A stretch of DNA of 64,000 nt from Bilabrum cf. latius (lineage: Eukaryota). The notes under the pieces were generated by a model. It saw only the letters and a list, made by a program, of their open reading frames with translations. It was not told the origin of the DNA and ran no database searches. The position numbers and the translations under genes are program-made. Below, in pieces: positions 1 through 64,000 of the stretch (position 1 is the first letter of the stretch; every line of letters begins with the position of its first letter). The stretch covers positions 806,001 to 870,000 of the forward strand of contig OZ237736.1 in NCBI GenBank assembly GCA_965178125.1, in the 5' to 3' direction.

Positions 1-1395
1 CCCTCTGTCCGTCAGTGGAGGGACTCGAGGCGGCAGGTGGAGGAGCTCGAGAGGAGGGTCGAGGCAGCCATGGACCTGGGCGTGACCGTGGAGCAGCTGG
101 ATGTGAGGTCCAGGGACCTCACTGCAGAAGAGAAGGCGAGGAGGAGGCAGACGCCGACCGCGGTCCTGGCCCGGTCGGACCGCCTGGCGCACAGGCTCGG
201 CCTGCAGGTGATCGACGCGCTGCCGAGGGACGTGTGCACGGGAATCCTGAGGGAGATCTGCGTGGCGCTGGAACTGTCGGACCCTTACGCGGCTGCCGCG
301 GGCGTCCGCACCTTGGCGCGTGTGGTGCATGGCCTGCCTCCAGTGGAGGCGTTTCTCTCTGATGCGGTCGAAACCATCTGCGAGGCCACATACGGGCTGC
401 CTCAGTTTGATGGGGACAGGGCCAGGGGGGCCGAAGCGGGCGCACAGGGCGGCAGCGGGGCAAGTGTCCCGCCGATGCTGCGGGGAGAAGCGCTGGCTGC
501 GGTCCTGCGGCGCCTGCAGTACATGTGTGACGAGTGCAATCGGTGCGGGGAGCTGCTGCAGCTGCGGCGGCAAGTGGAGCGGGAGCTAGGCGCGAGGGAC
601 AGAGCTGCCGTGGAGCGGCTCAGTGATATGGACAGGGCCAGAGATGGAGGTGTGGCGAGTGATGGTGTGACGAGTGCGGATGGGTTCACCGATGCTGGGA
701 TCGTCAAGGCTGTGCGGGGGCTAGTCAGGCTAGAATCAGCTGCGAGCCAACACGGCGCTGTGTACGAAGCGGCAGAGGCGGCGCAGCGGGGCGACCGGAG
801 CGTGCTGAGCAGCATCGTGAGGCATTACCAGGACCTGTTTGAGGTGCCGAACCTGCAAGGAACGTTCGCCAGCATGTCTCAGCTTCGCTCTGCTGCTTCG
901 GAGCACACGGCCCTCATGGCTTCACTCCGCGTGGAGCTGGGTCTCCGCGCGGGCGCTGGGGTGGGCCCTGGGTCCGTGGTGGCGGCTGTCCGGCAGCTGA
1001 AGAAAGAGGTCGCGAGAAGCTCTGCAGCGGATGCTGGCGCTGCTGCCGGGGCTCTGTATGCCCTGGCTGGGTCTAAGAGGGCCAGGGGCGCGAGTGGGGC
1101 CGCCAGTGTTCTCCGGGGGGAGGTGCCTGGTCGTGCGCAGGGCAAGGGCACGGGCCAGGGCCAGGAGGCCGGTGCGAAGGGTGGCGTGGTTCGGTCTTCC
1201 GTGGGGGGACTTTCGGCTGCCAGGGGTGAAGATGGAGTGAGAGATGTTTAGGAGGATCGGGTGATGGACGGTGCGGGTAAGGTCGAGCACGGGGCAGCAG
1301 TGTCATCTGATGAGGCTGCTCGTCTTGGCGAGGGTGCTGCGGGCGGTGTTGTTGTGAGCACGGTGCGGGATGCAGCATCTGCTGTTACTGGGTAA
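1..1395 (+). CDS. CEP70-like centrosomal coiled-coil protein (5' end outside window)
   Basis: IVRHYQDLFEVPNLQGTFASMSQL resembles the CEP70 C-terminal motif (HFQKLFDVPSLNGVYPRMN). The frame continues through TAG 1249-1251 to TAA 1393-1395. Confidence 0.65.
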
Positions 1396-1573
1396 TGTTG
1401 TGAGTCTGGAAATCTTTGATGTTCTCTGTACAAAATGCACCATGGCAAAAATGCGCGGCGCCTAGTAGTACCGGCGGCCAGCAGTAATGCCGTGCGGAGC
1501 CGGACCGAGTGCCAAGGCAACTAGGCCACTCGCTTGCTGCAGGCTCAATCAGGCCTGATACCTACTTGCAAGT

Positions 1574-4500
1574 ATGAGTTCATAGAAGCCCAAAGACTCT
1601 CGCGCAGGCGCGGGTGCATAGGTTGCGCAAAGTAGTCGATCCAAAAAGAAGGTTGCTTCGTTTCCCGCGGCGGCTTTTGACGAACTGGCAGAGCAGCTTG
1701 CTGCTGCAGGATTGATCCGGGCAGAAATAAGATCTCGATTTAAAACGTATCGGGATGCCACGCGCGGCTCGGATGTGGTAGCTTGGCTGCTGGGCCGATA
1801 TGGAGGCCCTGGCGGTCTGTTGCGATCAAGAGGAGCAGCATGCCGCCTCGTGCTAGAGTTGATCCGGCGATCCACGCTAATTCCAGTAGGGGGAAAGATT
1901 ATTGCTTCGGCATCGGCTATTGATAGCGAAGACACAATCATGCGCCTATCAGAGAAATTCGCTCATTTCAGGAAGCAATCCGACGTGTCTTCCATCGTCT
2001 CTGGCGGGTTGGGAGCTCACTCTGCGGCTTCCATGGATGACTCCATTGATTCTTATGGAAATCAGCTCGGCGTTGCGGTGAGCCCAAGCGAGCTTGAGCA
2101 GATTCGTGTCCCAGGCGGCGATGGTTTAACGAAATCAGAACGCAGGAAATCTGGCACCTCTGACATTGGTTTGCCGCTACCGAGTGCATCTCCCAAGTCA
2201 ATTCTGGACGGTACCGATACTGGAGACTCTCCAAATGCGGCTCCCCCCGAACTGGCATCGCAACAGAAGGGAGTTGGTCGCGGTGCATCCCGCAGCTTTG
2301 TAGGTGGAGGCGACAGCTCTGTTGCAAGATTTCTCTTCGAAAAGCAGGCTGTGAAGACGACCCCATCAAGTATGAAACAAGCTGCGATCGGCAGACGCCA
2401 GCGCAGCAGCGGAGCTGTGGAATCTGGATCCGCTCTCCGAGGAGGGGTATCTGGCGAGCGTGCTCGCTTTACCAGCACCGGTGATTTCCAGCCCGGCATG
2501 CTCCGAGTCGCATCGCATGAAGGGGCGATCGGGCGAGCACCTTCTGCGTCGTTTGCAGCGCCTGGTTAGCAGCGTGGCCTCTCCGCAGGAGACTCGCCTC
2601 TGGCAGGCAGGTCTCGAAGCCAGGCTGCTCTCGCACAGATGGCGCTGGCAGGTGCTCGCGACGCTGGCGCAGGCGGCTCGATCACTCCGAACAGCGCCCC
2701 CATCGACCTCACGGATCCAGAGGAGCAGAAGACACAGCCCTAGTTGGACCCAAGGCCGGTTCCATCCGCAAGCACGGCCGCGGCAGCAGAGGGACACGGG
2801 CAGTCACCCGGCCCGGTGGGTCCCGCCGATGTCGCCGTCGGAGCACACGCGAGCGCACTGGCCGCTGCCGATCTGATCGACTCTGTGTCAGTGAGGGTAG
2901 TCGCGGCCGAGACCGTGGGCCCTCAGGGCTAGCCCGCTCCCGCCTCCTCCCCCTCCTCCTCCTCCCCATTCTCTCTCTTCGGGGGTCCCAAGCAGCACAC
3001 GGTCTACGTGGTCAGGGTGACGGTGGGGCTCAGAGAGTGGGACGTGAGGCGCAGGTACTCGGCATTCAGGCAGCTGCTCGCAGCCGTGGCCGAGAAGATG
3101 GGCCAGGGAACAGTGGACCGGCTGCTGCCGCCCTTCCCTCTCAGGACCGTCCTCACGCCAGCCATGGACCCATCCGTTGTGCAAGAGAGAAGGACGGCGC
3201 TAGACGCATGGCTCGCTGGGCTGGTGCGACTGCCCGCCGCGTGGGCCGTTGGGACGTTGGCACGTTTCTTGGACGATGGGTCTGGTGTTCTCAAGATGTA
3301 GACGGAGCTTCTCGTGAGTCGTTTAAGCCGCACCCGACTCCGATGATCCGCATGATCCGCATGGCCTGCTCGCCCTGTCTTGTTGTTCCATTTGTTGCGC
3401 CGCCCAGCTCAGGACATCCACACCTGCTGCACCCTTTCGCGTATTGTTCTATGCACCTTCCTCGCTATCGCAGAGTATGCGCAGAGCGCAGGCAATTCTG
3501 TTGTAGCGGGCCTCCGCAAAAGACGACGAGATCCGCCGTCTGCGAGCCGACGTGCAGCGGCTTCAGGGTCCCAAAGCCGGTGGCCCTGGCCAGTCTCAGT
3601 CGGCACAGAAGCGACGAATGACCGGTTCAGCTGACCGTAGCGCGCTTCGGACGCGCAGGAGGCTTTCAGACCACTCCAGTGTGGCGTCGAAGGGCAGCGT
3701 GCGGAGCAGAGGCAGCAGCCGGAGCGGTCGGCTCGGTAGGTTCAGGGCAGGCTCTAGCAGCTCAGCGTACTCGACTCGGACGGCAGAGAGCCAGGCGGTC
3801 TGGCCGGCGTCGTTCTACCGACCTTCTGGCGTGTCCGACCTAGACCCGTACTTTGAGGCTTCGTCGGCTGACATGAGACACCTGAGCGTCGACGCGAGCA
3901 TGGGAGCCACCGCCCTCTTCAAGATGCAGCTGGGCGAGAGGGTGCCCAAGCTGCCGGCACCCGAGGGGTTGCCCGCTCCCCACAGCGGCGGGGCAGGGAG
4001 TACTCGAGGTAGCCAGGGCCCAGGGCTACCCCTCGAGGACGACCCCCGATTCGTCGCTCTGGGCGGGGAGGGCTGGTGGGACGATTGGCTCTTCAAGCCC
4101 GGCATGTTCCAGATGCCCAAGAGCGCCAGGACTCCCGCGAGGCTCAGACTAGGGAAAATTCCGGCGGCTAGCCAGCTGGGTGGAGCTGCTAACGACAAAT
4201 CCGCAGACGCTGCTGCTGCTGCACCCGAGGACGCAGCCTAGCCAGCAGTACCTCGTGGGCTGCGGGAAGGCAGCGTCTCGTTCAGCGAGCTGTCCTCTGC
4301 TTTCGAAGCCATTCAAGCCGCTGCTGTTCGAATTTGGGCGGATCGGTGCGAGCTGTCTGCGGAGGAAGGTTTCAAGAAGCTGCAAGAACTCATGAAGATG
4401 CCCTCGGCCGACACGGGCGAGACCGGGTCAGACGCAGACAGGGCGGACAGCGACAGCAGGGGCAGGCGGGACTCCGATGCAGACTCCATGTCTTCGTCGA

Positions 4501-7500
4501 TGACGGCGCAGCAGAGAAAGGCAAAGTTCACAACGGCCGAGGTCATGCGATAGCTCGCCGCCGACCGAGCAGCACTCTCCCATGCCCTGAAAGAAATGCC
4601 CGACGCGGACACTCCCAGCGGCGACCTCGAATCGGACGAGCCGGCAGAGCAGTACTCTGGCGTCCTGGAAATCCCCCTCAAGCACATCGCTCTTGCGGCG
4701 CAGGCCATGTCAGCGCCACCAGTCATCGACGGGCAGGCACAGCCGGCCAAACGAGCCCTCTTCCCGTCTCCCGAGGCCATCACCTACGCCCTGGCCGTTC
4801 TGCACGCGGACGGTGGCGGCGAGCTGGGTGCCTCACCGGACGACACTGATGCCACCACCGCGCCCCAGGCGACCGGCTGCGACTGCCTGGCGGCGGTTAC
4901 AACGGAGATGGACAGGCTGCTGCTGGGCCTTTGCCCCACGGGCGAGTCAGTGGCCAAGAGGTAGGCCGTGGTGAGACTGACAGGACGCGCGCTGCGCGTG
5001 AGCGTGTCTCCAGTCGCCGAGGCAACCATCACTGGCAGCACGGCCAGCAGGGCGTTCCTGCCGAGCGGTGACGTGGACATCACGGCCCTTTTCGCGGCGC
5101 AGGCCATGGAGCACGAAAGCCCTCGCGCAGCGCCGGGGGGTTCCGCAGCGAACCTTCGCAAGCGGGCTGCTGCAGCGATGGCGCACTCGATGCAGGCGGT
5201 GGATGAGGTGGCCCTGGCTCCCAGCGTGGATGGGCCGATGGGCCGCGAGTTTCCCGTGAACCTGCCCCTTGACTCCCTCGGGGCACTGGGCAATGCCACC
5301 GTCGCTAGGGCAAAGCGCTTCGCCGAATCGCAGGCGATGCTCTCCCACGGAAGCGGTCAGGACAAGGGAGGGCCGCATTCGAAGGGGGGCGGCGGTCACG
5401 ATGGCAGCGGGAGCTAGAAGCGGAAGAAGAGGTCGAACAGACGGAAAGGTATGGCGGCGATCGCTGCCGCTGGCGGTGCACCCTCTGAGGGCGGCGAGGC
5501 AGACGGCACGAATAAGAATAAGAAGTCCTTAATGGGAGAGGCTTCGGGAACTACCGTAGACCCGAAGTCCACGGCCGATGGGCCTGCGCTGCAGGAACCA
5601 TCTGCGATCGAGTACGATGGGCCGTGGTACCTCCGCTTGCAGCGGTTGCTGTGCCTTGCCGCAGCCAGGTCAAGAAACCCCACAACTGCGCCCAGCGATG
5701 CACTTCTGGCTGCTCTGCGAGGCGTGGGCTTTGATGCGCTCTTGCTGCAGGGGGCCCACCTTCCCGGTGCCGTGCAGGTTGCCCAGCAGTACCGACAGGA
5801 GCTCGTGGACATCGCGAACGGGCATGCTCTTACCAGTTCCCTTGCTATCGAAGGTGCCGCGGTGCACGCCCGGGGCAGCGAGCAGACTGAGAGCAAACAG
5901 AGAGCGGAGCAAGAACTCCTCCGGCTGATGCTGCAGGCAGGTGTGAGGCCCCAGAGCAGCCCCTCCCACCCATTCCTGAGACCATCGCGCGTTGGATCCC
6001 TGGTGGACAGGGTGCAGTTCGTGAATGCAGATCCGAGGCTCGTGCGGTTCAACAGCGGGCCCTTCGAGGTGGACGTGTCGGCGAACGCCGGGCCGGCCAT
6101 TGCAGCCACCTGCCTCGTAGAGCTATGCGACCGGTGGTTCGGCTGCGGACACATGCTGAAGCGAACGTTCATTCTGCTGAAGGCATGGGCGAGCCTGGAC
6201 GGTGGTCGCGCTGCCTCGGCACTGGGGCACGGGGCGGCTGCTGCCACTGGGTCCCGGAAGGGAAGGGGAGTGCCCAACGCTCAGCGGGCGCAGGCAGAGG
6301 CTGGTGGCTCTGCGCCAGAGCGCACGCTGCTGGGGGCGTCTTCAGGCGGAGTGTCCTCGTACGCCCTCTTCGTCCTGCTGCTGGGCGCGCTCAACGGCTC
6401 GACCACAGTGCCTAGAAGTAGGTCTCGCTCTGCTAGCAGCGACACCTCGGCCGAACCCATCGAGGTCATGGACGTCCCGCAGCACCCCCTCCAGGCCCTC
6501 GCCATGTTCTTCAGGTACTACGACGGCATGACCTGGGAGAGCTGCGTGGTCGGATTCGATGGCGCGAAGAATTTCTACTCGAGGGAGCGCTGGCACGGAA
6601 ATGGAATCGCCTCCTCGCAGCCTACCCGCATCACCGCTCTCATGCTGCGGCCACTGCGGGAGGCCGCTCTGGGCTGCGTGGGCAGGCCTAAGTTCCTGTC
6701 CAAGCTGGATTTCGACATGAGGGAGTGCAACGTGGCTGACCCCCTCCGCCCCTGGGAGAACATCTCGAGGGGCGTGAACACGGCCGGGCTCGATTCCCTG
6801 CGGCGGGCGATCCGACGGGCGCGCGGGGCGCTCTCCTTGGTGCTTTCGCGGGCCTGCCTTGCGTCTCGCATGGAGCTGCCGGCCCCCGATGCGGCAGGGG
6901 AGACTGCGGGTGCATCGTCCAAGCAGAAGTCTCTGAAGGAGGCCGGCGAGAGGAAGGCAAAGGAGGTGCGTGACAAGGTGACCCGAGTGATGCCGGAGCA
7001 CGAGCTGAGCGCAACCCGTGCCGAGGTCAGGGGCATGAGCGCCCCGCTGTGGTGCGCCATGGTGGGCATGCGGAGGCTGCTTTCCAGATGCTACGACCTC
7101 TACGGCAGGGGAGACGGTTGGAGGGAGGACGCACAGAAGCACATTCGTGCGGTGCACGAGGGCGTCACGGCCAGGTCGCTGCCGGCACAGGGGTACGCCG
7201 CTCGCAACACGGCTAGCATGGTGTCGACCGCACACATGTCCATGGTGACCAGGGCCGAGTCGGCAGCGGAGCGAGCAGCTGCCGCCGGCGAGCGTGCCCT
7301 GGCCGTGGTGGAGCGCGCGCGAGGGTCGGGCCTCCGAGACCGCGTGCTGGTGCGCATGTCGGCAGTCGCCGCGGCCGCCGTCGCCCACGCAGACGCTGCG
7401 CAGGACGCCAGCGATGCTGCCCAGGTGCTGGCGCCATCTGCGGGGCCGGACCAGAGCCTTAGGCTGGCTAGGCTGGCCAACCAGCATGGGATGCTGGACC

Positions 7501-9893
7501 CCAGCACGGAGTAGGGTGACGGTGGGGCGGGCCAGGACGTGTCATCGGCGAGGGCGGGGGGCTCTGAAGGAGGGGCCGAGGGTGCTGCCTGGGAGCGGCA
7601 GTGCGGTGCAGCCAGGTTCTTGTGCCGAAGCAAAGGGGCACCCCAGGCACCAGACGCCGCGGCTGCCGCCCACGCCCAGATCGCCGAGCGGCTGACTGAC
7701 CTGTGCGACCAGATGCTGGCTATGGAGGACACCAAGGTCAGGCTGGCGGCAGAGCCGCAGCGCAGGCTGCAGGGCACGATCGAGTCGAGGATCGCCTTCG
7801 ATGCCACTGCAACTGCTTCCCCCATGCCGGAGCTGCAGGGATTCGAGCACACGGGCGTCGGCGCCACGCTCGGCACCGCGTCCATTCCGCCGACCCAGTG
7901 GATGGCGCAGGTGGCACGCCCGGGGCTGGTTCCTCCCGCGCCCATCCTGGACGGAGACTTCGAGCCTCCCCCGCCCACGGCCTGCCTGGATCCCCTCAGG
8001 GGAGACCTCCTTGCGATGATGCGCTCCGTGTAGCGCGCCGCACTGCTCTGCGGGCTCAGGGCGGAGGAGGACTGCCCGCTGCCTGGGTTCGTGCTGGGGC
8101 GGGGGGAAAACGGCGAGGACACGCGCGGTGACAGGTCTGCTTCTAGCTCTGGCGCTGGCGCTGGCGCTGGGGGAGACCCGGGTGCTGGTGGGGGCAGCAA
8201 GGGCAGGAAGGGCAGCGGGTCTGGACGCGAAGACAGCGTGGGTGCACTGCACGGCGGTGGCGGTGGCGGTGGCGGTCGCAGGCGCAGTCGGGGCGGCAGC
8301 CGATCCTCAGCGCCAGGAAGCGGCAAGCGAGCCACAGTCGGCACAGCAGCCATCACTGCCGCGGCTCTGGTGGAGGAAGCGCGGGCGGCTCTGGGGGCGG
8401 TGGCCCCCACAGAGGTGTCCAGCCCTCTCTACGGCCTGTCCCAGGTGGCGTGGATCGCGCTGTCGCTACCGTCACACGCCAGGTTCGGTGCTGTGCCGAC
8501 TGCACAGCAGCAGCTCGCAGAGGATCGGAGCCTGATGGGCCCGCTGGCGCCGAGACACGTGCTTGTGGACGTGGCGGCAGTGAGATCCATCCCGGTGGGG
8601 GAGGTGGGCAAAGGCGTGTCTGCCCGGGTGCAGAGGGTGGACATACCGGCGCGAGTCAAGGAGGCGTTCGACGGGCTGAAACGGGTGGTGGAGCTGAGGC
8701 CGTGGGCATTCACCGTCGCTCGGACCCACCCCTTCAACCCAGTAGTCACCCTTGCGGAACTTGGCGCCACGCATGCGATGGGAAGTGTTCATGGGCACGG
8801 GCACGGGAAAGGTCTCAGCTCGGTCGCGTCCGTGCCGCGCGGATTGCAGGTCCCGCCGCCCCTCCCAGGGGCAGCAGGCAGGCACAGCAGGGACGTGGAC
8901 GGTGCCAGCGTGGTGCATTCCTTCGATAGTGGTATGGGCATGGGGTCCGCCCCTGGCGGGCCGAGGATGGGCACCCCCGTGCTCCCCCCGGGGTCGCCGG
9001 GGAGCGGACCCCTGGATGGGGTCGGCAGCAGGGGGCAACGCGGGGGTAGCAAGAGCAGCCGCCGCCGTGGGAGCAAGCGACGCAATGGAGGCGGACAGGG
9101 GAGCCCCAAGCTGGGGCCAGACGGCAACCCCCACGGGGGGTCGGCCAGGGGAATTCACCCGAGAGGTGTGGGCGGGGCATCCTCGTCAGTGGACGGCATG
9201 CCCCCTGTGGTGTCTCTCGGTGTGTCTGCAATCGGGGCATCGGGCCGTGGTAGAGGCAGAGGCCGCGGCAGGGGCCGAGGCCGGGGCAGAGGGTACGACC
9301 ACAGCCACGGGCAAGGTCACGGCCAAGGCACAGTGCCAATGACAGGGCACATGGGCGGAGCGGGCGCGCCTCCTGGGGCCTAGCAGCATCACCATGCAAT
9401 GCAGCAGATGCACGCCTACCAGCACGCGCAGGCACAGGCTTATGCCCAGGCTCAAGCGGCCGCCGCGTCAAGCGCGGCAATGCAGCACCATGCAATGCAT
9501 CCGCCTCCGCAGGCTCCGGGCATGCCCATGTATTCCAGCATGGCGGGACACGGCTCGCCCATGATGGGCAGCCTACCGCCGCAGATGATGCAGGGCCAGC
9601 ACCAGCCACCGCTTCCGACAACTAATGGAGCACTGCCTCAGATGGGTGCTCCCTACTAGGGAGGAGGGCCCGGACTTGGTGGCGCCCCGCGCACCGGAGG
9701 GCATACCATCCAGATGTCGACGTCCGTGCCGACGTTTCGGCCAACAATTGATGCTTCGTCGGGGCGTGCAGGTGCAGCAATGCAATCATCTCCGCTACGG
9801 ACGGCCGCGGCTGTCCCTGGAGACGGAAGCTCAGCTGGAACAGCGGCAGTTGGACCCTCGAGCAGTGCTCGCCAAGACTCTGAGGAGCCCTGA
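1574..9893 (+). CDS. DEP + PX domain protein fused to a non-canonical poly(A) polymerase / terminal nucleotidyltransferase (PAP2/TRF4-like NTase + PAP/OAS1 substrate-binding domain); one intron ~3314-3473
   Basis: DEP: RSRFKTYRDATRGSDVVAWLL. PX: HTVYVVRV..WDVRRRYSAFRQL..LPPFP..ERRTALDAWL. NTase: GSTASRAFLPSGDVDIT, VDVSAN, KRTFILLKAW, GGVSSYAL, VADPLRPWENISRGV. Intron gtgagt(3314)..tcgcag(3473) joins the frames in phase 0. About 15 in-frame TAGs and no TAA/TGA until TGA 9891-9893. Confidence 0.75.
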
Positions 9894-10146: not shown

Positions 10147-12150
10147 ATGGCGGCCGTTGCCACAGCCTCAGATTCTACAAGCCATGCTGCATACAGGAGG
10201 TTCATGACTCTCCCTGTTCCGGGCACCAAGTGCCAGGTAAGCCAGCCAAACGACCATCGAGACATGTCTTTGAATGGAGATACACCTCTCTTTCGCACTG
10301 CTGTCCACGGTTTTCGCTGCACAGGCAGAATACGTTTGGATCGGAGGAACTGGTCAAGACCTTCGGTGAGTTCACCGCATACAGTCAATCCATGCTCTGA
10401 GGATGGCGGTTTTGTTGCGGGTCGGCCTTGTTGCCCTCCGCCGCATCATTGCGCTTTTCTCGGGATGAAGTGCTCATGTGGAAGAGACACTTCGGCTGGC
10501 CCACTATATCACTATCATTGATATTATAAGAGCTGATTTTGAGTCTATGGAAGGTGTCGATGTTTGCTGCGACTGAGCTGCTTTGTGTCGTGCCTTCCGG
10601 GGTTGATGACGGGAAGGTTCTGAGTTACGGCAGCTTCCCTTTTAGATAGAAGAGCGGTGTATCTGATACCACGTTCCAAATGGAGCACATGCGAAGATCA
10701 ACAGCCTGCTGCGCTCCCATTTGAGCTCACGGTGCCCCTTCCAACCCACAGCCCTAGCCCCCCCCGCCGCGTTTCTCACGCCGCAGTTGCAAGACCAGGA
10801 CGTTTGAGAAGGTACCCACGGATGTCTCTGAGCTTCCCATTTGGAACTTTGACGGCTCGTCAACCGGGCAGGCCCCAGGCGACGACAGCGAAGTGTTGCT
10901 TCAGTGAGCATGAGAAATCGCCGCCGCCCCAAGTGCAACTGCCGTGGTCATCGGGTCAGAGTCCCGCTGTCCTCCACCTCGACCAGCTCACACCATGTCC
11001 TCGATGCATGCACAATGAAATCCATGTATTAGTCTTGATTGCCCGCGATTCATGCCCTGCGTGCCCCTGGATCACACCGAACACGTCCTTCTCATTCGGT
11101 TGCATGCCTCGCGCCCCTTCGCCCCTTCTCCCATCGCAGGCCCGTGCGCATGGTTCCCGACCCCTTCCGCGGCGCCCCGCACATCCTCGTGCTGTGCGAA
11201 TGCCTCAGCAAGGACATGGAGCCCCTCAAGGGAAACACTCGCCGCGCCGCGCTCGAGACCTTCGCCAAGGATGAGGCGGCCAAGCCCTGGTTCGGCATCG
11301 AGCAGGAGTACACATTGTTCGAGGCGGACGGCGTCACTCCCCTAGGGTGGCCCTCTGGAGGATTCCCTGCCCCCCAGGGACCTTACTATTGCGGCGTGAG
11401 TTGGGTTTTCGATCGGCGAGGCCGCGACATGGCGCGTTTTTGGTTGCTCGGTGGAATGCCCCAACCCACTCGTGTGTTGCCCTCGGTGGCTGTCTTGCTG
11501 CCACCCCCCATTGAGCTTTGGCCGAATAATTTGCCCTCTAGTTCTCTCTTTTTTGATTCATGCTGTCGCAGGTGAACACCCAGGTGGGTCGATTGCTCGT
11601 CGAATCGCACTACAGGGCGTGCCTCTACTGCGGCATCAACATCTCGGGCGTGAACGCAGAGGTGATGCTGGGCCAGTGGGAGTACCAGATCGGGCCTTGC
11701 ACCGGGATTGAATCCGGGGACCACATGATCCTCAGCCGATTCTTGTTGCTTCGGATCGCCGAGGAGTTCGGCGTGAAGGTTTCGTTCGACCCCAAGCCCA
11801 TGCGCGGGGACTGGAACGGCGCGGGCTGCCACACCAACTACTCGACCATCAAAATGCGCGAGGAGGGCGGGTACGATGAGATCGTCAAGGCCGTGGAGAA
11901 GCTCGGCACCAAGCACGCGGAGCACATCAAGGCGTACGGGGAGGGCAACGAGCTGCGACTGACGGGGGCACACGAGACGGCTTCGATCGAGAAGTTTTCC
12001 TACGGCGTGGCGGACCGGGGGTCCAGCGTGCGGATCCCTCGGCAGGTGTTTATCGACAAGAAGGGCTACTTCGAGGACCGCCGCCCCGCGTCCAACATGG
12101 ACCCTTACTTGGTGACCTCCATGATCTTCCAGACGACTCACCTGGACTGA
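10147..12150 (+). CDS. GLN1: Glutamine synthetase type II, 5 exons (10147-10236, 10325-10365, 10787-10903, 11140-11395, 11572-12150)
   Basis: Motifs [77 protein letters not shown]. Four GT..GCAG introns restore the frame. Ends at TGA; no in-frame TAG. Confidence 0.95.
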
Positions 12151-19621: not shown

Positions 19622-19658
<37 letters not shown>

Positions 19659-43531: not shown

Positions 43532-43640
43532 TCATAGACCTCGCAGTGCAGACTAACCCCAAAATAAAAAAAGCGCACCGGAATCTTGAGGCTTTTTCCG
43601 GTTTGGCTCCCGCTTGCCGCCGCCGGCGATGCGCCGCGTA

Positions 43641-51700: not shown

Positions 51701-53657
51701 GTCGCAGGGCAGACCCTCTCTGCACCTTGGTAGGCAAGGCGACCTCGACGACGAGGACGACGAGGACGACGAGGTGTCGCCGGGCTCGTCAGGCTGGGGC
51801 GAACAGCCAGTGGTGGACGTGCCAGGCACACCCGCAGACGTGGACCTCAGAGACATCGAAGTGCTGCTTCCTGCGCAGCTGTTCCACCCCGACGCATAGA
51901 AGCGTGTGACGCCTCCGTTGACCACCCCGGTCGACGACAGGTACAGGAATGCGGTTCTGCTGGCGGCGCGTCGGTTGGTAGACCGGTGCGGCTGCAAGGG
52001 GCCATACCTGGTGCACCTGCCCGGCTGGGAGCAGCAGTTCGACCTCTGGCAGGGCATGCTGGCCGATGACCGCCTCTCTGGATTCTAGAGGCTCTACTCG
52101 AGTGACGATGCCGGTATCACCACCTGCACGGATCGGGCAGTGGCACTGTGCACGTCATGCTCGCTGTCGCCAACGGAATCTAGCCGGAGGTGTCTGGACG
52201 CCGGCCGTGTGATGTGCATCTGTGCACTGCCGCGCTTGGTGGCGTGGATAGCGTGCGCAGCCGCGTTTGACCTCTACTCCTTCGTCCGAGCTCTGCTCGA
52301 GATGAGCGTGCAGCTGTGCTGCGGAGCCGACCCAGTCGCGGTCGCGACCAAGCGTCCGCAGGAGCACAGGCTCTCTACCTGTGGTCGCTTCTGCGTCCGG
52401 CTGAGTGCGTGCGGGGCGGGCAGCGGTGCAGCCTGGGAATCAGCCGGTGCGCCAGTCCTCACGTCTACAGATGGATTCGTGTCTAGGCCCGGATACCGGG
52501 CCCCGGTCCAGCACCCTGCAAATGCAGCAGACAAGCAGGCACCAGCTGCGGGTGCCGAATGGCGATCGGTTCTGCAGCTGCCAGCCGGCTTGGGTGACGG
52601 TCCAGCGCATGCCCCGCCTCTGATGGGCAGGCCAGACACGGCCGATGTGTCTGGCCTCAGCACTCCCGTAGCGCGCGAGATCGGATCCGAAGATGAAGAG
52701 GACACCGAGGGCAGCGAATCGGCGTCTGTTCCGGGCAGCACGAGCGGCGTGGCAGCTGAGGGAGGGACTTCGCACCAGGCAGACAACACGGCACAGGTTT
52801 CATCGGGACTGCGTGGCAGGTGGTCACACCGGTGCTGCCGGACGACTTTTCCAGCCCTGGGCCTGGCCCTCATTGAGACAATCTTCAGCGAGTGCCTGCC
52901 CTGGATCGATCGGCGCGCGAAGCTTGTCGGGCGCCGGGCCAGGTACCATCTGTCCAAGACTCTGCGGGAGCGTCGGGCCGTTGTGCTGGTGCCGACCCAC
53001 CCCACACCCGCCCCCGTGCACGGGCTCGCACTGTTCCGCCCCACCAACGCGGGATACACAGCGTACTTCAACGCGATGCAGACCCCCGTCACTCAGGTCC
53101 CAATCGGGTTCCTGGGCATGCCTCTGTCCCTTGACGAAGAAGGGGTCCAGGGCGCGCTGGAGGCGGCCAGCACGTCGCGCGCGTGTGCCAACGCCAGGAA
53201 GGTGCACCCATGGGCCTCTCTTCCCGTGGGAGTGTCGGTGGTCGGGCCCATCGCGCACGACCACTGGACCATTGCAGTGGCGCTTGCGCTCGAGCGTAGG
53301 TGCGGGGCAGGGTGGGTGCCGCCTCCGCTGGCTGGTCCACAGGCGGCGACGCGAGTTCTTGAGCGTGTGTACGGCGTGAGCAGTGAAGTCGGGGCACTTG
53401 GTAGATCTAGTAGCAGCGGTGACGACAACGGCGGGATTGCAAGGGGTCGCCGTGCAGGCAGCAGCGGGCACGAGGGCTCCCGTGCCTCCCGCCCGTTGGC
53501 ATCCGCCAAGACGATGCAACGCGGACAGGTGCAGCCGAGGGAGTCCGGTGGCAATGCGAATTCCGTATCTGTAGGCAGCGGGCATCGAGGCAGCGGTGGC
53601 GACAGCTCGACCAGGCGGAGGGCGGGCAGCAGGGCCCGGCAAAGGAGGAGGGATTGA
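48756..53657 (+). CDS. Amidase-signature family enzyme (FAAH2-like) with N-terminal TM and very large low-complexity insertions
   Basis: PFLGVPTTIKE, GGSSGGEG, GLGSDIGGSIRMPA, YTAYFNAMQTP, LPVGVSVVG. About 9 in-frame TAGs; TGA 53657. Confidence 0.88.
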
Positions 53658-53728
53658 GATGGCGACAGCTCGACCAGGCGGAGGGCGGGCAGCAGGGCCC
53701 GGCAAAGGAGGAGGGATTGAGATGGCGA
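53598..53728 (+). repeat. 63-bp tandem duplication spanning the amidase stop codon
   Basis: ggcgacagctcgaccaggcggagggcgggcagcagggcccggcaaaggaggagggattgagat x2, plus a partial third copy. Confidence 0.9.
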
Positions 53729-53816
53729 CCTATCTGTTTGCGCAGACCTGTACGTGATTCATGCATGCATCCCAATGGCAGACGTTATTCAACTGTCGCA
53801 GTATCCGGATTCCGGA

Positions 53817-54998
53817 TCAAGTTGAGCCTATTGAATGATAGGCAGATCCCCCAGTCTTGGCCGCATCAACCACTGCATCCTTGCTTCCCAACAACTGCAC
53901 TGCGGCAGCAAGCCACGCGGCTAAATCATCGGCTGGCCCGCGGGCCAGCACGCTCCAAGCATCCTCCGAACGCGACCCAATCGACGCAATCTCTCGTCTC
54001 GCATCGGATGATGCGGCCGTGTTGGACGTGGTAGACGCCCTTCCAATAGCAGACTTTGACCGCCAGTCCGAATCCCACTGTGTTTCGCACTCCAACAGCG
54101 CCCGCTCGTCCGCCATCATGAGCCCGGCGCCGCCTGCAGGGGACTGAGTGCTCGCCACTAAGCAAGTGCTGCGCTGCGAGCGGGACTCTGCCATGGCAGT
54201 ATGCTCGCCCTGGTCGAACTCAGCAGCCCCATCGTGCGAAGGAACATGACCACAAGAGGCTGCTGCTGTGGCAGCCAGGCCTACTTTGGCTGCCAGGGCA
54301 TCCGCATGGGAGGGCAGGCGAGCAGGGCGCGTGTTCTCCGCGAGCGGAACCCTGAGAATGCCATCCACCGATGAAACTGCCGATGCAGCCTATCCACACA
54401 TGTATCTGGCGCTGTTGTGGATGAATCGCGCGGAGGCTTCGAGAAATTGGCAATCCGCCCGGCCTGCTCCTCTGTCCAGAGCAGCTGCTCGAGCTGCCAC
54501 TGCGAGAGCCACCCTGGCATCCCGAGCCTGTGCGTCTGCGAGCGAGCACACTGCCTTTGAAACTGATGCCATATTTGATGTCTGCTGGTCCAGATCGGCG
54601 GCAGCTGCTGTTTCGATGGCAGCTCGAGCGCCCGGAATGGCAAACACCAACCCGAGCCCGGCCGGAGGCTCATCGCTGGGATCGGGCACGGGCGCTGGCA
54701 TCGAGGGCGGGTGTACATGGCACAATGCCGTAGCCACATCACGACTGGTGGTCGGCTTTCCTCCCTTCACGATAACAAGCCTCTCCCGCGCTACTCGGAC
54801 ACCCCTGGCGGCACGCCGCCCCAGGTCCCAGGTCTCACGCCAGTCGGACCACCTCTTAAACGTGGCGTCCAGAAATTCATCAATTGCGGAAGCGTCGGTA
54901 TCAATTTTTGATGCGAGAATGCCGCGAGACTTTTCACTTCTTGATGGTGCGGAGGATGGGGAGCCGGCCCCGCGACCTCGTGATCGTTTCCCTGGCAT
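53817..54998 (-). CDS. Hypothetical protein
   Basis: ORFs 54390-55043 and 53817-54368 are in one frame joined by TAG; ATG 54998; TGA end. Confidence 0.6.
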
Positions 54999-55006
54999 TC
55001 CAATTT

Positions 55007-55411
55007 TCACAGCAGCTCTCCCGTGAAATGCACTGCCAGCCAAATCGCTGGCTCCGGGTTTTCTGTATCTTTTGGGCCTCCTGATGTGTACGTCACCTTG
55101 TGCTTCACACCTTGCGGGATGATCAGGTAGTCTCCGCGCCCGAGTGGTCGTTCCTCGCTTTCAGATTGGATCCGAAGCTTTGCTCTGCCTGACACAAGAA
55201 TCACAAATTCGTGATCTTTCTGTTCAAACCACTCGGAACCGTCGCTGGGCGCCGTTTGTCCAGTGCTGGTGATCCACTGCACCTGGGTTGAATCCCCTCC
55301 TCGGGCGTTCACAAGCTGCTCGAACTGCTCTTGGTCGAAGGGCTCACTCTTGCTGTTTAGTATGGAGCCTGCCTAGACCGTGCTGTATTTGGAGGGCGCT
55401 GCTTCGGCCAT
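55007..55411 (-). CDS. Small cupin-domain protein (bacterial-type Cupin_2 family)
   Basis: WITSTGQTAP..WFEQKDHEFVILVSG..LGRGDYLIIPQGVKHKV..IWLAVHF. ATG 55411 with one in-frame TAG; intronless; TGA end. Confidence 0.8.
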
Positions 55412-55419
55412 CAGAGGGG

Positions 55420-55900
55420 TGGGAAAGGAAAAGGAAAGGAATTCTGGTTTAAGATGCAATTCACGATAGTGTAATAAGCACGCAACCCGAAAATCCGAAA
55501 AACTACACACTCCTGTGCGGTAGAGCACCTAACATAGTAAAAGCAGAAATCCAAACAGGCGGATTGTTGCGGGACAAGCCCTCGCACCCAACCACAGCGG
55601 TCGCTGTGGCACCGGTATCCCCCAAAACTGCTTTAGTATCTGGGGAACGCGAACGGTGAGGGGCAGATCGCGATTGATGCTGCCTGCACCGTCAATGTTT
55701 CAGGGCGCCGCCACCACGCTCGTCGGCGTGATAGAGTGGCCATGAAGTCGTCTCTGAGTCGTGAGGTGGCATGTGCTGCCGAGGCGAGCCGAACTGTCCA
55801 TGCCTTGTCGAGTTGGCGTTCTAGGCGTCTGAGCACCTTACGCTAGGTAGAGCCAGAGGACCACGATCCAATGCTTGTCTCCACCCCAGGTATCTGGCAG
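55420..55900 (-). mobile_element. Divergent 3' fragment of a related LINE (ORF end + 3' UTR + TTCCT-rich tail)
   Basis: LRRLERQLDKAW..LAS..RRRAWW..PFAF parallels the LINE ORF end LRDIERQWAKG..LAS..RRKWW..LYAF. Hairpin ccacagcg/cgctgtgg in the UTR. Confidence 0.45.
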
Positions 55901-56544
55901 GAGATAGCCAGCGGTAAGGGTGGGGCCAGCCGACAGTCGCCCGACACAGTGCGATGCAACCGGCGGACCAAAACTCAATGTCACGCTGTGATAAGAAGCC
56001 AACAGATGCTCGTAATCAGCTATCTGGACGACGCTCCCCTTCTTGATTACAGCTAGAACTCAATGACTGTCCTCATATTGGCACGTGATCGAGCGCAGGA
56101 ACACCGAGCTATGCACACGGAACCAACGCAAGAATTCAACAAATACCTTTCCTCAGTCCATCTCATTCATGGGATCTCATCCATGGGATCATTTTCATCG
56201 TCGCCTGCTCGGCTCGTGCCATTGCCCGTGCCAATCAACCCGTCACCAGCTCGCCCAGACGGCGCTTGGTTCAGCTGCACCTGGCCGCTCCCAGCCCCAG
56301 TTGCGCCACCAGTCGCCCCAGCACGCTGAGGGGCGTGCCCAAGCCAGTCTCGCCGATGCCAGCTGCTGCAGCGCTGGCTGCAGTTGCAGCATTTGCCCGC
56401 ATCCCAGGGTCCCTCTCACTTCCACTCCAACCCTGCCTTTGCCGCAGGCCCTGGTGGCCAGCACGGGAGTGGCCCTTGAGGCGTTCTCCAGGTCAGGAGG
56501 GGTCATTCTGCAGATGGACCCAAGGCATCTTCATCGTTGCCCCC

Positions 56545-59500
56545 TTAGAGGTCTGAATCATCTCGCCTCAGGACACAAGCTTCGTACACCGTAGGACGCT
56601 TGAGCTGCGACAAAAGTATGCTCTTCTCGTCCTCGGACAGCTATGGGGACGACTTGTACAACCCAGTTACAGCAAGCTGCACCGCTGGGATGGCCATCCT
56701 CCAGAATTCCTCCCCACTGACCACCTTCACGCCAGCCGCTTCCATCTCCTCGCGATCGCTAGGATCAACTGCCGACAGCCACAGAGGCAGGTGCGTCCAT
56801 TTCTTGATGTGCCTCAGATTGCTGGCCTGCGCGAGCTAGGACACAACAGGATCATGCCCATCCACCGCTCTATCCCACGACGCAGCAAGTATCTTCGCAT
56901 CCTTCAGGCGCTTGTCGGGTATACGCCCCATCGTTACCTGCGCCCGAATCACCACAGCCTCGTCGGAGCTATCTACGGCGCAAACTGCCACCAAGTCGGC
57001 TTTGCGCCGGTCTGGCGCTTCCTTGAGAATGGTGTTCAGCGGAATACCAGCACCGGCTTGAGCAATGGCTTTCAAGTCGAGCCTCTCAAGTCCGGCAATT
57101 CGCTTCGTGTCCCTGTTCTCTGGCCCGACAAGAGGCAACGACCGCAGGAACGTACCGCAGTCAAGTCGCCGGAATCCGAGCGTACCCTCCAATCCCACGT
57201 CTTGCCCAATCACACCCAATCCATTCAGTGCCAATCCCTCCGCCACGAGACCCTCCACAGGATCTTGGGCGGCATTCCCACTTGCATCATGAAGCCCATT
57301 GAACTCCAAAGTGTGCAGATTGTCTCCCACGTGGTTCAGGTGCGCGTTGGCGATCAGGAGGAACAGCTTGGAGCTAAATCGTACCACGCGAGCCGTGGAC
57401 AAATTTGAGCTGTCTGTCTCGGTCACAATATGACCATGCTCATTGTACATTTCCAAGAATTCAGACACCGATCTCCTGTCCATTGGGTCAACCCGCAGTG
57501 ATTCCAGCACATTTTCATCCGAAACTGGCACGCCGCTACTCTTTACGAATTCCTCTTCCGATAATTGGAGGCTACGGCGGCCTTGAGCTAAAATTTGACG
57601 CTGCAGCCAACCAGCGAAGTGCGCAAAGGCCCGATCGTTACTGAGGTCTGCCCGTAGCCGATCGGCGAGCATGTCAGAGACGCTCTCGTCAACAGGTCTG
57701 GCCAGAAACCGCGGGATGCTTGCAGAGGCATGCCGCAATACCTCGACGAGCCGCTCGCCCTCCTACGCATGCTGCTCCCAGTCTGGGTCAGCTTCCCTCC
57801 ACCTCTTTGCGTCTCCCATTGTGATCAGGACTGCTGCGTTGCCTTCTGAAGACCCATCAGTCCCCATGAGTGGATAACGAGACAGGAAGCCGTGTTTCCG
57901 CAGAATGAATAGCTGGTCATCCTCGAGCATCCTCTTGGCGACTGCCCTCGCTATGGCTATGCCACGGTAAGGCTTCCGACCTGGGTTGCCGTACAAGCAC
58001 ATCAGCTGCGCCTCGACTGTAGAAAGGGTATTCTGCAGCGATTGCTTCACTGTCTTGTGGTAGTTCAAGACTGGTCGTTCCGGGCGGTTATACAAAAAGT
58101 TCGGAGTCTCTGACCACGTGCCAGTAAGCCGCAAGGCCACAGTCCCGCGATTCTCGGCAATCGCTCGAACGTGGCGGATGAACCGATCGGCCACTTCAAC
58201 ACCAAGGTTGCGCATTTCAGCGACTTCATCGAGAAGTAAGATCGGGATGATGAGCTTCCCCTTGGCCTTCCTCCATTCCTTTATCCAGCTCTCGAGGTTG
58301 ATCTAGCGCGTGTTGGGATCTGGTTCGGACTTGGCATCGCACCAAGGGGGGAGCTGCCCGTCATCACCAGGCAACACCCCCCTCGCGTGCATGGCAGCTG
58401 CAAGGTACGCCTCGGGGACCGCAGCACACGGTTCGTTCACGTAGACAGTGCAGATGATCACGTCGGGATTGGCGAACTCGATCATGGCCATTGCCACTCC
58501 GATAGATTTCAGCAGCGACGACTTGCCCACCCCCTTTGCCCCAACCACCAATTTGTTGTTCATGTCTTGGTTCGGATATCCAGCAAGGGTATTCATGACG
58601 GCGTCAATGGCAGAGAAAAGAACCCGGTCCCGATGGGACTCTGGATCCTTCCCCCAAAGGGGTGGGAGCACCCCGCTCAGGATGTGGGCATCGCTCAGAG
58701 GCACCGAGCCAGCCACTACCATCGCATGCACGAGCACCTGCGTGGCCTCGACAATCCTGCTTGCGGCCTCTTTGCAGTCGTCATCGGACTTCATATCTGG
58801 CCGGATGTGGCATGTCGAGCGGATAAAATCAGCAGCGGTCCTGCCGCATGCGGTGCGATAGCCTGCGGCCTCTGACTTGGAGCACCAATCCTCGATCTAC
58901 TCTGGGGTCCACGTCATAGTTCCGAACATACCCGGACGGTACTTGTCTAGCAACCCGACTCGTAGTAGCTAATCGTCGCGGATTCTCTTCCCTTCTGCCT
59001 CAAGCTTTGTTTCTTTCTGCTGCCAATCTTCTTCTTTCTGCCGCGCTACCACGTCATGATCCAGCAGTTCTTCAAGGCGACTTTGTATCATGTCAAAATC
59101 TTCGGATGCTTGTTTTGCACGCAAGTACCGGACTGTAGCTGCAGACAGCAATGCATCGAGTACGCCAGCCGAACGAAGACGCTCCATCCGCTCGGCGAGC
59201 TCGGCATCTGCAGCAGGAAGTCCAGGCAAGCCACGAATATTCTCGCCATCAGTATTTAAAGCATATTCTACCGCGCTGATGACTTCTCGCTCGTTACTTC
59301 CAACGCTGCGGCTGACGAAGGTTGCATCAGCATGAGCCTGCTGGACTGCTGCAGCGGCCGATTCAAGAGACTTCCGCGAGCCCGGTCCACGCCACTAGAT
59401 GTACGCATTTTTTGCTTCTAAGGTAAACGCATCATAGCGTTCCAAACGCCAGGCCAGCTTCAGACTTTGTAGCCAGACAGCAGTGAGGTCAATCACTTTT

Positions 59501-59709
59501 GCCTGCCGCTGTGACGAAAGAAAGCGACCCAATCGATGCCCCAGGCATGGGTGCACACGAATTGAAATTGCTTTGTAGTCGTTCATGTCACTGACAGTCG
59601 CCCAATGAGATGCATCGAGGCGTACATTTGCTCGCGTCCACAGTCGCCCCGGCCTCGACAAGCGTGATATACCCGACCTCAGCATCCGAGGCACGGAATA
59701 AGCACGCAT
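56545..59709 (-). CDS. ~1054-aa P-loop NTPase + PD-(D/E)xK-like nuclease (Crinkler/RHS-type effector architecture), intronless
   Basis: Walker A VVGAKGVGKS, Walker B ILLLDE, C-terminal KADLVAV..IRAQVT. 3165 nt with 7 TAGs and no TAA/TGA until TAA 56545. Confidence 0.72.
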
Positions 59710-59842
59710 ACTGGACGGCAAAATAAGTTTGAAAGTATTTCTTAATGATCGGACGGAATTTGAAGCGATTTGGCTGCCCCTACTGCAAACTCATATCGCG
59801 CCGTCCATTCGTGAAAAGTCGCCGACGGCGTATCGTTACATT

Positions 59843-60532: not shown

Positions 60533-60720
60533 GGTCTGGCCTGGAGGTCCCAACATCAGGGCCGGTACATGGGGGGCCTTTGGTCTGAAAGGGTCGGGGG
60601 TCTTGTAGTCCTCTTATGAGGGCTCCTACCGCTGCAGGTGATCACCTGAGATATGGTGCATCTACGATCTGTGGCGGGTTCGGTAACTTAACCCAACAAT
60701 GTATTTCTGTATTTATTTCT
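60533..60720 (+). mobile_element. 3'-UTR-only copy (SINE-like or extreme truncation) of a sister subfamily of the 34.7-38.1 kb LINE
   Basis: Shares tggggggcctttgg(t/c)ctgaaagggtcgggggtcttgtagtcct, caggtgatcac, ggtgcatct and acccaacaatgtatttctgtattt with the LINE 3' end. Confidence 0.85.
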
Positions 60721-60791
60721 GGCCCCGTGCCGTGATCCGATCGCTTTTCTTAAACCAGACATTTTGGAGTGTTCGTGCAGGTTTTTACCCT

Positions 60792-61570
60792 CGTTTCTGT
60801 TCCCCTTCTCCAGAGCTGACTAACAAGGTGGCTGTGGAGATGACTCGCCGGGAGTCATCGCTGCAGTCATGTGGTCTTCAGGCAGAGTGGGTCTCCGGTG
60901 ACTGGGCCAGTCGAAGTTCAGAGGAGAAGGGCAAGACAACGAAGGCATGGGCGGACCATGGCCTACGTCTTGAACCTCACCCACAACCTCTGGAGAATGA
61001 CAGGCGTGGAATCGCTGCTGCTGAGCGAACCATTCCCAGGATGCGCCGAGCAATTGCCCGCTCTAGTGCCTCTGTTGGATTGGTACGGCTTGCGACACGG
61101 GTAGTTGATGAGCTGAGTGTAAAGGTCAGAACGTTTCCGTCCTGGACTGCCTGCAGGTGGTGGACTGGGGCCTCGGTGCGAGGCTGGACTGCGAGCTCAT
61201 CGGATGACCTGAATACCGCAATGCGAACTCAGGATCGAAGGGGACATCGGGTGGCTCGCCCTAGAGGGCTCATGCGCACTCTTGAGAGGATCTGGGCGCG
61301 TGAGATGGCAACTTCGCTTCGTTGTGTCTTGCGTGAAAGGGAGTAGCTACGTCGTACATGGACGTCCCGCTGGTGGCGGATGGTACGTGTTGACGGTCCG
61401 GCTGTTCTTACGAGGATGGCCCGGGCCCATTCTCCTTCCCTCTGGTCCTTTGGTGGATGAGTGGGTTAGTCCAAGGGTGGTCGTCTCGGTATGTGTAGTA
61501 CCATGATGTTTCGGAAATCCTCTTCGGGACGAGGGGTTCTTCTTTCTTTCTTTCTTTTGCTTTCTCTTGA
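60792..61570 (+). mobile_element. Divergent 5'-truncated LINE relative (ORF C-terminus to TGA ~61460, different 3' UTR)
   Basis: KAWADHGL..RMRRAIARSS..LATRVV..PRGLMRTLERIWA..RERE*LRRTW..RWW..RAHSPSLWSF aligns with KAWAKTAL..RIERTIARSS..LANRVV..PHGLLRDIERQWA..RAHAPHLYAF. Preceded by TTTTTACCCTCG. Confidence 0.8.
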
Positions 61571-62586: not shown

Positions 62587-62764
62587 TATACACTCGGAAC
62601 AATCGGGAGTACCTGGTCGACGTTGAGCTATCATTGGTTCCGCTACAATGGTTCCGCAAGCGCCGCGGCAGCGATACTGCGCGGCGCCTCCTGCACTTCG
62701 TCTTCAGGCCATTTGCAGGCTTGAACGCGCTCGAAAGATGCACCACGTTTGGTTTGCTCATCAA

Positions 62765-64000
62765 ATGCGAGAGCTAGGCTCTTGTTTATGCGGTGTCGTT
62801 GCATGTCTGTGCTGTCTGGGGCCTGTTTCACTCATTATTGCAATCGTCTTCTTTGTCGGAGCGGCTAGGAACCACAGAGAAGACCTGGTAGAGTCATACA
62901 ATGGCGTGGTTGACATATGGAAGCATGGATTAGCGGCACAATTTGGTGCAATCTCGCCATTTTTGGCCCAGGCCACGGACGTCGGCATTAGTCGAAGAGT
63001 TGCTGTAAACTATACGAGCCAGCCTCCTCCGAGAATCGATTCTGGAAGCGACCTGGACAAGTATTCATAGCACCCTATATTCTATGGTGTTGGACGGCTA
63101 TTTAATGATGTGCATGGAGCCTACAACTGGCCCATCGACGACTCGCACTACGTTCCATCAGCGATTTAGATCCCGTCGTTCCGGGTCTTTTAGTAGAACT
63201 CTCAGTCCACCGTGCTGCCATACACTGGCGAGCACCCATCAGGCGGTGCTCCTGTGGTCTTCATGGCAAAGGAGTTTGGAGCATCGCAGTCGAGCTGCAT
63301 GTCAAGGCGGGGCATCTTTGTGGGCTCCCCTTCCTACATGGACGACGACGATTTCTCCACGCGAGACGATGATTACCACCGCTACGACGACGATGATGAT
63401 TTCAACCACCATCACCACCACCACAAGACTGTGAAAGGGGTGTGCATCACTTTCTGGGCCCTGCGGAGCGTGTGCGTCACTGTCACCGTCCCGTCAACGA
63501 CGACGCATAGGATGCCGCTGGCAGTGCGAAACGGAACCGGGGCCGCAGCTGTAGACCGCAGCTGGCACAACGAGGCCGGTTGCGAGGGAATCCCACAGGC
63601 GCTACGAGCAGCGACGGTCCCATCCGAGCTGAGGTTCGGATCGGCGGCGCCGTTCGGCGTCTCCTCCTTCGGGTACGAGCAGGTGCCCGCCTAGGGGAGA
63701 AGGGGACCGTCTGTGGTGAGCCTCAGCAGCACCCGCGTGACGGTCCGGTCGGGAGGGGACCCGTACGTGGAGGCGGTGCGCCTGACGAACGGGAAGCCCA
63801 CGTCGTTCGGTTTGACCAGGGCGACCCAGTTCGCAATCGCGGTGGCTTTCTTTGTGATCGGGGGGATTGGCTGTGCCATCCCCATTGGAATTCTCTGCTG
63901 GGTGCGGGCCTGCGTGGGCGGGGGCAGCAGCAGCAGCAGCAGCAGCGGTGGCTCGGCAGGAGGGCCGTGGGAGGGGCAGCAACCGCAGGGAGGGGGTGCG
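62765..64000 (+). CDS. Two-TM membrane protein of unknown function (runs off the window)
   Basis: N-terminal Cys-rich TM (CLCCLGPVSLIIAIVFF) and C-terminal TM (FAIAVAFFVIGGIGCAIPIG). One frame linked by TAGs at 63068, ~63192 and 63692. Confidence 0.65.

Follow-up and report, generated by a model that had tools for sequence, protein, structure and literature searches.

UAG as a probable glutamine codon, with UGA and UAA as the likely terminators, in a GC-rich 64-kb window of nuclear DNA

Nuclear genetic codes in which UAG alone has become a sense codon have been described for the rhizarian exLh, where it means leucine, for Iotanema spirale and Protocruzia tuzeti, where it means glutamine, and for several phyllopharyngean ciliates, according to the available portions of two papers (PMC11687900, PMC5304391). 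A citing sentence in PMC11687900 adds the green alga Scotinosphaera, in which UAG would be serine, and in the same portions the lineages outside the ciliates that give UAG and UAA different meanings are few, namely the rhizarian, Iotanema and Scotinosphaera (PMC11687900, PMC5304391). For Amoeboaphelidium protococcarum, both TAG and TAA are reported as glutamine codons in the accessible text of PMC6299283 and PMC5304391. Here we analysed 64,000 nucleotides of nuclear DNA from Bilabrum cf. latius (contig OZ237736.1, 806,001 to 870,000 of the forward strand; hereafter the window, positions 1..64000), in which TAG appears to be a sense codon and occurs 90 times in frame in 22 open reading frame (ORF) pieces. 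UAG is very probably read as an amino acid in this DNA, most likely glutamine, with UGA (mostly) and UAA terminating translation, which is the pattern of NCBI table 15. The code of the window is therefore of a known kind, and the organism is a further case of it.

The 22 ORF pieces comprise 15,215 codons, and their 90 in-frame TAGs are accompanied by no internal TAA and no internal TGA. TAG makes up 0.6% of all codons in these pieces and reaches a maximum of 15 per gene, in a hybrid histidine kinase. Under the standard code, the longest ORF has 698 amino acids and none has 800 or more; when TAG is read through, five ORFs of at least 800 amino acids emerge, the longest having 2188. Reading through TGA lengthens the ORFs even more, because TGA is the commonest stop triplet here (1668 TGA, 811 TAG and 415 TAA in six frames, TAG being 28%). 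ORF length alone is therefore a weak guide, and homology is the test. Spans supported by Pfam, PDB or relatives cover 5,302 codons and contain 42 TAG, spread over eight genes, and neither TAA nor TGA; the TAG count is 36 if the amidase is restricted to its strong N-terminal Pfam hit. With TAG at 28% of the stop triplets, the chance that all 42 interruptions are TAG is about 10^-23. Pfam matches extend across in-frame TAGs for RPE65 (E 2.9e-53, four TAG), Amidase (4e-54), Presenilin (6.9e-38) and Rtf2 (1.3e-45), and also for HATPase_c and Response_reg, MAT1, PX and PP2C. Solved carotenoid oxygenases align on both sides of the TAGs and through the last residue, and alignments with relatives of a P-loop NTPase and of the kinase extend to the TAG sites or past them. 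These homologies support the reading of TAG as a sense codon in the nuclear genes of this organism.

A preliminary description of the window had claimed a nuclear code with TAG as sense and with TAA and TGA as stops, and this claim is borne out by homology across the TAGs, by RNA-like contigs, and by conserved downstream frame and C-terminus, as detailed below. It had also stated that genes are interrupted by TAG only and never by TAA or TGA, as the recount confirms, and had put the in-frame TAGs at about 80 by hand, where our count is 90. Single observations were reproduced as well: a TAG lies between Walker A and Walker B of the NTPase, another at 45705-45707 falls in the G2 box of the kinase (IAR-TAG-HGG), and the long exon placed at 3474-9893 was recovered as a plus-strand ORF of 2188 codons at 3327-9893 that contains nine in-frame TAGs and belongs to no known family.

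Public sequencing runs were found to carry the same TAGs. A 10-kb stretch is represented, in part or in full, in ten runs from six studies, and four runs from four studies (X1, X5, X6 and X7) were compared over 38,001-58,000, by means of contigs and not of reads, so that rare variants drop out. X1 is DNA-like, with a depth that is mostly flat at about 17-21 and peaks at repeats, and with contigs that cross gene borders; X5 is DNA-like by the same contig behaviour and is thin and patchy, leaving much of 49.3-58 kb uncovered. X6 and X7 are RNA-like, in that their contigs begin and stop at gene borders and neighbouring genes differ in depth more than 20-fold, PP2C having the highest depth. We infer the RNA nature of X6 and X7 from splicing, contig borders and depth, as no run is recorded as RNA. 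Their splice joints are limited to two GT..AG introns, one of 140 nt in PP2C (38951>39092) and one of 102 nt on the minus strand at the 5' end of the kinase gene (47792>47895); four further skips occur only in the DNA run X1. With the PP2C intron set at 38955-39094, the spliced frame contains one TAG and stays open as far as its TGA.

Over PP2C, presenilin, MAT1 plus kinase, and amidase, X6 (and X7 where it covers them) shows no other letters, and the DNA runs X1 and X5 are identical to the window. The RNA-like contigs carry unchanged the six TAGs of presenilin, the 21 of MAT1 plus kinase and the nine of the amidase. The presenilin contig (39948-41906) is colinear with the window without a single difference, and the amidase contig (48814-53681) is unspliced. 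The contigs of the four runs agree at all TAGs in the 38-58 kb interval, the sole listed contig differences lying at 55,482-56,346, which is intergenic. UAG thus stays in mature, spliced mRNA, the RNA label itself being that given to X6 and X7 above, and these unedited, unspliced TAGs are a further basis for TAG as a sense codon.

With regard to termination, the 20 ORF ends are 17 TGA, three TAA and no TAG. This sample is small, and the result partly follows from how ORFs are delimited; hence, the ends were checked against the C-termini of homologues. Six ends are backed by conserved C-termini (RPE65, presenilin, PP2C, glutamine synthetase, NTPase and kinase), and none of the six uses TAG. The RPE65 homologue alignment reaches the last residue before TGA, that of presenilin ends at residue 655 of 664, the match to PP2C includes the final position of the profile, and the glutamine synthetase alignment stops no more than two residues from its end. 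The NTPase relative P0010 ends at most three residues from the window TAA, and the kinase and its relative share their last six residues, RQGSSS. At kinase TAG 1361, 24 codons before the end, this relative has K, and about three quarters of the 24 residues that follow are identical in it (by eye from the printed alignment); translation therefore does not stop at TAG 1361. As preliminarily described, then, gene ends were TGA or TAA throughout, and genes appear to end at UGA (mostly) and UAA and not at UAG.

Among 84 in-frame TAGs, C follows 30 and G follows 20, compared with 24% C and 40% G after all codons (chi-square of about 12 with 3 degrees of freedom, hand calculation). A stop codon followed by C terminates weakly. 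The overrepresentation of C next to TAG may mean that eRF1 is still competing at these codons, or that there is selection against termination.

Glutamine is the best reading of UAG, and we consider it likely on the basis of comparisons with relatives, among which an Rtf2 pair and a fragment-end test carry the most weight. P0002, a Logan-derived protein that is 97% identical to the N-terminus of the window Rtf2, has Q opposite each of the two TAGs within its span (20291-20293 and 20240-20242). Three kinase fragments of 81-88% identity come from a single Logan contig of a relative, 5,862 nt long, and one of them ends right before the window TAG of IAR-TAG-HGG. The gene call of the relative thus breaks at TAG, and therefore the relative keeps a stop at the position of 45705-45707; it follows that database gene calls read TAG as stop, and hence that the Q residues of P0002 are real glutamine codons.

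For the NTPase, 53 relatives at E <= 0.001 were obtained from a library of 1.84 billion proteins, all of them fragments of 59-465 amino acids; this suggests that the family has many copies and that routine gene calling cuts up the genes of these organisms. In the fragment-end test, the stop positions of the relatives were predicted from the C-terminal ends of these fragments, and the window residue at each was read. Among 25 distinct predicted stop positions, the window has Q at five, K at three, S at two and TAG at one; one of the Q positions is hit by three fragments and another by two. Q accounts for 2.8% of the NTPase, which gives P = 5e-4, or about 0.01 after correction for 20 residues, and exact ends only (Q at 4 of 14) yield a similar P. 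Only Q is enriched: K has P = 0.09, and S at 2/25 compares with a background of 7%. In the relatives, site 468 of the NTPase is Q in three of ten and otherwise H, R, G, K, G, V or, once, a gap. BLOSUM scores summed over 19 TAG sites were best for Q (-2.1); K (-3.7) and E (-5.5) came next, and the score of L was -34.

Other approaches did not discriminate between residues. The PDB residues opposite TAG in MAT1, amidase, RPE65 and TFIIE-beta are single and mutually inconsistent (E/T, V, M/Q, E/Q; G, G, G; A, E, A; P, G, G; P; K), and a classifier of neighbour composition at TAG was uninformative, with T, V, R and S on top. The codon context of TAG in Ser- or Gln-rich runs showed no pattern, the presenilin alignment begins past the one conserved TAG site of that protein, and Rtf2 had no match in PDB. 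A homologue search with MAT1 returned none at E <= 1e-5, its candidates being swamped by coiled-coil words, and a metagenome scan with the kinase gave no close relative, only three distant loci whose domains are 23-52% identical.

Several observations weigh against glutamine, and some of them would suit lysine or arginine instead, a pair that we hold to be unlikely as the meaning of UAG, with leucine, serine and glutamate less likely still. The kinase relative has G, R and K at the three TAG sites covered and no Q, and the substitution counts of the kinase pair favour R and K over Q by 5.2 and 3.4 natural-log units. R or K recur in the relatives at NTPase sites 104, 648 and 1022, K is also found at three of the 25 predicted stop positions, and an Rtf2 relative of 58% identity has H, Q and G at three TAG sites. 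Residues are mixed at all seven TAG sites of the NTPase, and two of these look hydrophobic: site 270 is I, V and L in the three best-aligned relatives, then D and A, and site 648 is M, L, I, R, R and R. The kinase G2-box column contains L in 60 (52%), M in 24 and Q in three of 116 kinases; if TAG is glutamine, this L/M column, together with the stop kept by the relative at the same site, is unexplained, as are the hydrophobic NTPase sites. The tools themselves also had limits: the MAT1 Pfam score spans 41.3-44.9 bits, a range of less than 4 bits, when TAG is set to ten residues; hmmbuild emissions at the TAG columns are flat from weighting, so that the ranking tracks background composition; the fragment-end test assumes that fragments end at stops and not at contig ends, and that those stops are TAG; and the terminators were counted on 20 ORF ends only. 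Against lysine and arginine stand the Q at both Rtf2 TAG sites in a protein of 97% identity and the enrichment of Q alone at the predicted stop positions, and an arginine tRNA would need two anticodon changes to become CUA. A test of leucine came out against it, the Leu-like columns being only the G2 box and NTPase sites 270 and 648; its BLOSUM sum is -34 versus about -2 for Q, and among 42 L positions of the kinase pair, L is never paired with G, R or K. Serine gains nothing from the fragment-end test, at 2/25 versus 7%. Glutamine hence stays the preferred assignment, and the hydrophobic TAG columns leave room for decoding that may not be purely glutamine.

Readings in which UAG is not a regular sense codon, or not the only reassigned one, fare worse. 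UAG might still be a stop that is passed by inefficient or context-dependent readthrough, whether by near-cognate suppression or with a dual stop and sense role; the excess of C after in-frame TAG and the mixed residues at the TAG sites of relatives would suit such ambiguous decoding. However, low-efficiency readthrough cannot pass up to 15 TAGs in a gene or a codon at a frequency of 0.6%, TAG is found at none of the six verified gene ends, and the sequence after the kinase TAG 24 codons before the end is conserved, so that we regard readthrough as very improbable. Slightly more remote is a reassignment of both TAG and TAA, as in table 6, in which TAA would look like a stop only through its rarity in GC-rich DNA. 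It is true that 17 of 20 ends are TGA and that TAA is the rarest stop triplet (415, compared with 811 TAG), and TAG and TAA appear to encode glutamine together in Amoeboaphelidium, as far as the accessible text of PMC6299283 goes. Nevertheless, the supported spans have no in-frame TAA alongside their 42 TAG, where about 13 TAA would be expected from the window ratio of CAA to CAG (132:428), P0010 ends no more than three residues from the NTPase TAA, and the three ORFs with a TAA end would gain only 7, 25 and 13 codons by readthrough. Finally, the TAGs might not be translated as such, being part of pseudogenes, assembly or base-call errors (CAG read as TAG), sites of RNA editing, or micro-introns. 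No positive support for any of these was found, and the agreement of RNA-like and DNA contigs at the TAGs excludes splicing-out, editing, pseudogenes and assembly error as far as contigs show: four runs of four studies agree at every TAG in 38-58 kb, RNA-like contigs keep the TAGs with no other letters and with joints at only two GT..AG introns, the interruptions are exclusively TAG, and a stop is retained in a relative at the matching position of the kinase. We therefore give this last explanation next to no credence.

In the code that we favour, with UAG read most likely as glutamine and UGA and UAA as terminators, UAG would be decoded by a dedicated tRNA with anticodon CUA, and eRF1 would have lost or weakened its recognition of UAG while keeping UAA and UGA; both steps are proposed by analogy with the cases in the available part of PMC5304391. 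The expected tRNA would be a tRNA-Gln, whose CUG anticodon is one base from CUA. The 64-kb window contains no tRNA gene by a tRNA scan and no match to any Rfam family, and the eRF1 gene is not among its genes. A CUA anticodon pairs with UAG and not with UAA.

The window may be compared with each of the described codes. Iotanema, Protocruzia and the phyllopharyngeans, all of the table 15 type, resemble it in the UAG-only change, the probable glutamine, the retention of UAA as a stop and the expected tRNA(CUA), as far as the seen portions of the literature describe them; the window differs from them in its 60% G+C, its long genes on large contigs, its spliceosomal introns, its hybrid histidine kinases and its carotenoid oxygenase. 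The rhizarian exLh is likewise a non-ciliate with a UAG-only change, and its terminators were also found by orthologue comparison, according to the accessible portion of PMC5304391; in exLh, UAG is leucine, whereas close relatives of the window genes show Q, Q, G, R and K, and leucine is disfavoured. Amoeboaphelidium is, in the text available, another non-ciliate eukaryote that uses stop codons as glutamine; it is set apart by its published description, since TAA never occurs in frame in the supported spans of the window. Scotinosphaera shares the UAG-only change and its place outside the ciliates, on the evidence of a citing sentence; in contrast to its serine, serine is found at none of five TAG sites in close relatives.

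The lineage of the organism was approached through the window itself. Glutamine synthetase is about equally near plant and yeast structures, and the structures closest to the RPE65-family protein come from a lancelet (BCOL) and an archaeon (a CCD). MAT1 is nearer to yeast Tfb3 (E 3e-14) than to human MAT1 (5e-7), which is a weak hint at a possible fungus-side affinity. The Atlas gave only generic glutamine synthetase clusters and AAA_22-like bacterial clusters, with no lineage signal. Large contigs are indicated by run records of more than 200 kb, none of which spans the 20 kb of 38,001-58,000. Long genes, large contigs, 60% G+C and spliceosomal introns all argue against a DNA like that of a ciliate macronucleus. 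The word "flagellate" in the preliminary description had no basis, and "intron-poor" holds in relative terms only, as the glutamine synthetase gene is split by three or more introns, and those of PP2C and the kinase by one each. Our literature search, outside which supplements lay, found no GC-rich non-ciliate with a UAG-only code that fits the window, which is no proof of absence. Four studies released runs with this DNA in 2025, and a description of the organism may be in preparation.

At least one related organism appears to share the reassignment of UAG, because the gene calls of relatives break at matching places. Close relatives also differ between TAG and CAR at conserved sites. We tentatively suggest, with somewhat less than half of our confidence, an independent and undescribed UAG-only origin in a poorly sampled, GC-rich, non-ciliate clade of at least two related taxa, in which the code is possibly in flux. 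A GC-rich genome is an unusual place for stop-codon capture. The contiguous assembly and the matching RNA-like public runs would allow one to ask which tRNA reads UAG, and how eRF1 distinguishes UAG from UAA. Standard gene callers mis-annotate such genomes badly, and this clade's proteins in the database are plainly broken up at TAG.

The G+C content is 56-67% across the 64-kb window and about 60% overall, and genes are dense on both strands. By Pfam, they include a PX-domain protein, an RPE65-family carotenoid oxygenase, Rtf2, PP2C, presenilin, MAT1, a hybrid histidine kinase, an amidase and a type II glutamine synthetase, alongside several long ORFs without a known family. The glutamine synthetase gene (10300-12150, plus strand) is the contrast case: no recognisable exon contains TAG, and its last exon (11587-12150) is TAG-free with a GC3 of 0.90 and ends at TGA. 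Highly expressed genes might avoid TAG. The carotenoid oxygenase (14886-17120, plus strand), identified by Pfam and solved homologues, has four in-frame TAGs and a TGA end, and Rtf2 (19361-20449, minus strand), supported by Pfam and by P0002, has five. A TFIIE-beta-like gene (30787-32310, minus strand) has three, two of them within the winged-helix core; both of its scores fall just under the Pfam cut-offs (TFIIE_beta 25.5 versus 28.1 bits, winged helix 24.7 versus 26). PP2C (38330-39642, plus strand) has one TAG, in exon 1, ahead of the intron already described.

Presenilin (39922-41916, plus strand), identified by Pfam, has six in-frame TAGs; at its first catalytic aspartate, in TM6 (41300-41420), WD is found in place of the YD of solved presenilins. 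MAT1/Tfb3 (42188-43531, minus strand) is likewise a Pfam assignment and also has six, four of them inside the MAT1 domain. The hybrid histidine kinase (43641-47792, minus strand; Pfam HATPase_c and Response_reg) holds the 15 TAGs mentioned above and has its 5' intron at 47793-47894. A single X6 contig (42132-48261) takes in both the kinase and MAT1, which lie on the minus strand with about 107 nt from stop to start; this could reflect overlapping untranslated regions or a shared transcript, which look alike in contigs. The amidase gene (48756-53657, plus strand; Pfam) has nine in-frame TAGs. The N-terminal half of its domain lies at amino acids 118-354, and a C-terminal half follows about 1000 amino acids on in the same frame as a weak match (E 0.0087), the two being separated by about 1000 low-complexity residues. 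This stretch is retained in the RNA-like contig, and therefore the spacer is a very large insertion and not an intron. The P-loop NTPase (56545-59790, minus strand), AAA_22/AAA_16-like by Atlas features, has seven in-frame TAGs and a TAA end.

Several repeats lie between and within these genes. A satellite at 22398-27860 consists of 62 copies of an 88-bp unit with 96% matches and is C-rich on the plus strand; it accounts for the scarcity of ORFs here and, at 24-28 kb, for a GC skew of -0.42. At 35145-37846, a tandem duplication with a spacing of 1469 bp has copied the 3' portion, with both TAGs, of an ORF that belongs to no known family, with 100% identity over a 300-nt reference copy, and a diverged paralogue of the duplicated ORF with one TAG is found at 60687-61460; these sequences look like a repeated, possibly mobile, element. 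The summed contig depth in X1 is 1189 at 38001-38667 and 96 at 55343-56009, compared with about 18 elsewhere, with many loose-ended contigs, and both segments are dispersed repeats of high copy number. Related to them is a repeat at 28037-28609, and in the relative represented by P0002, a copy is present upstream of Rtf2, where the window has none.

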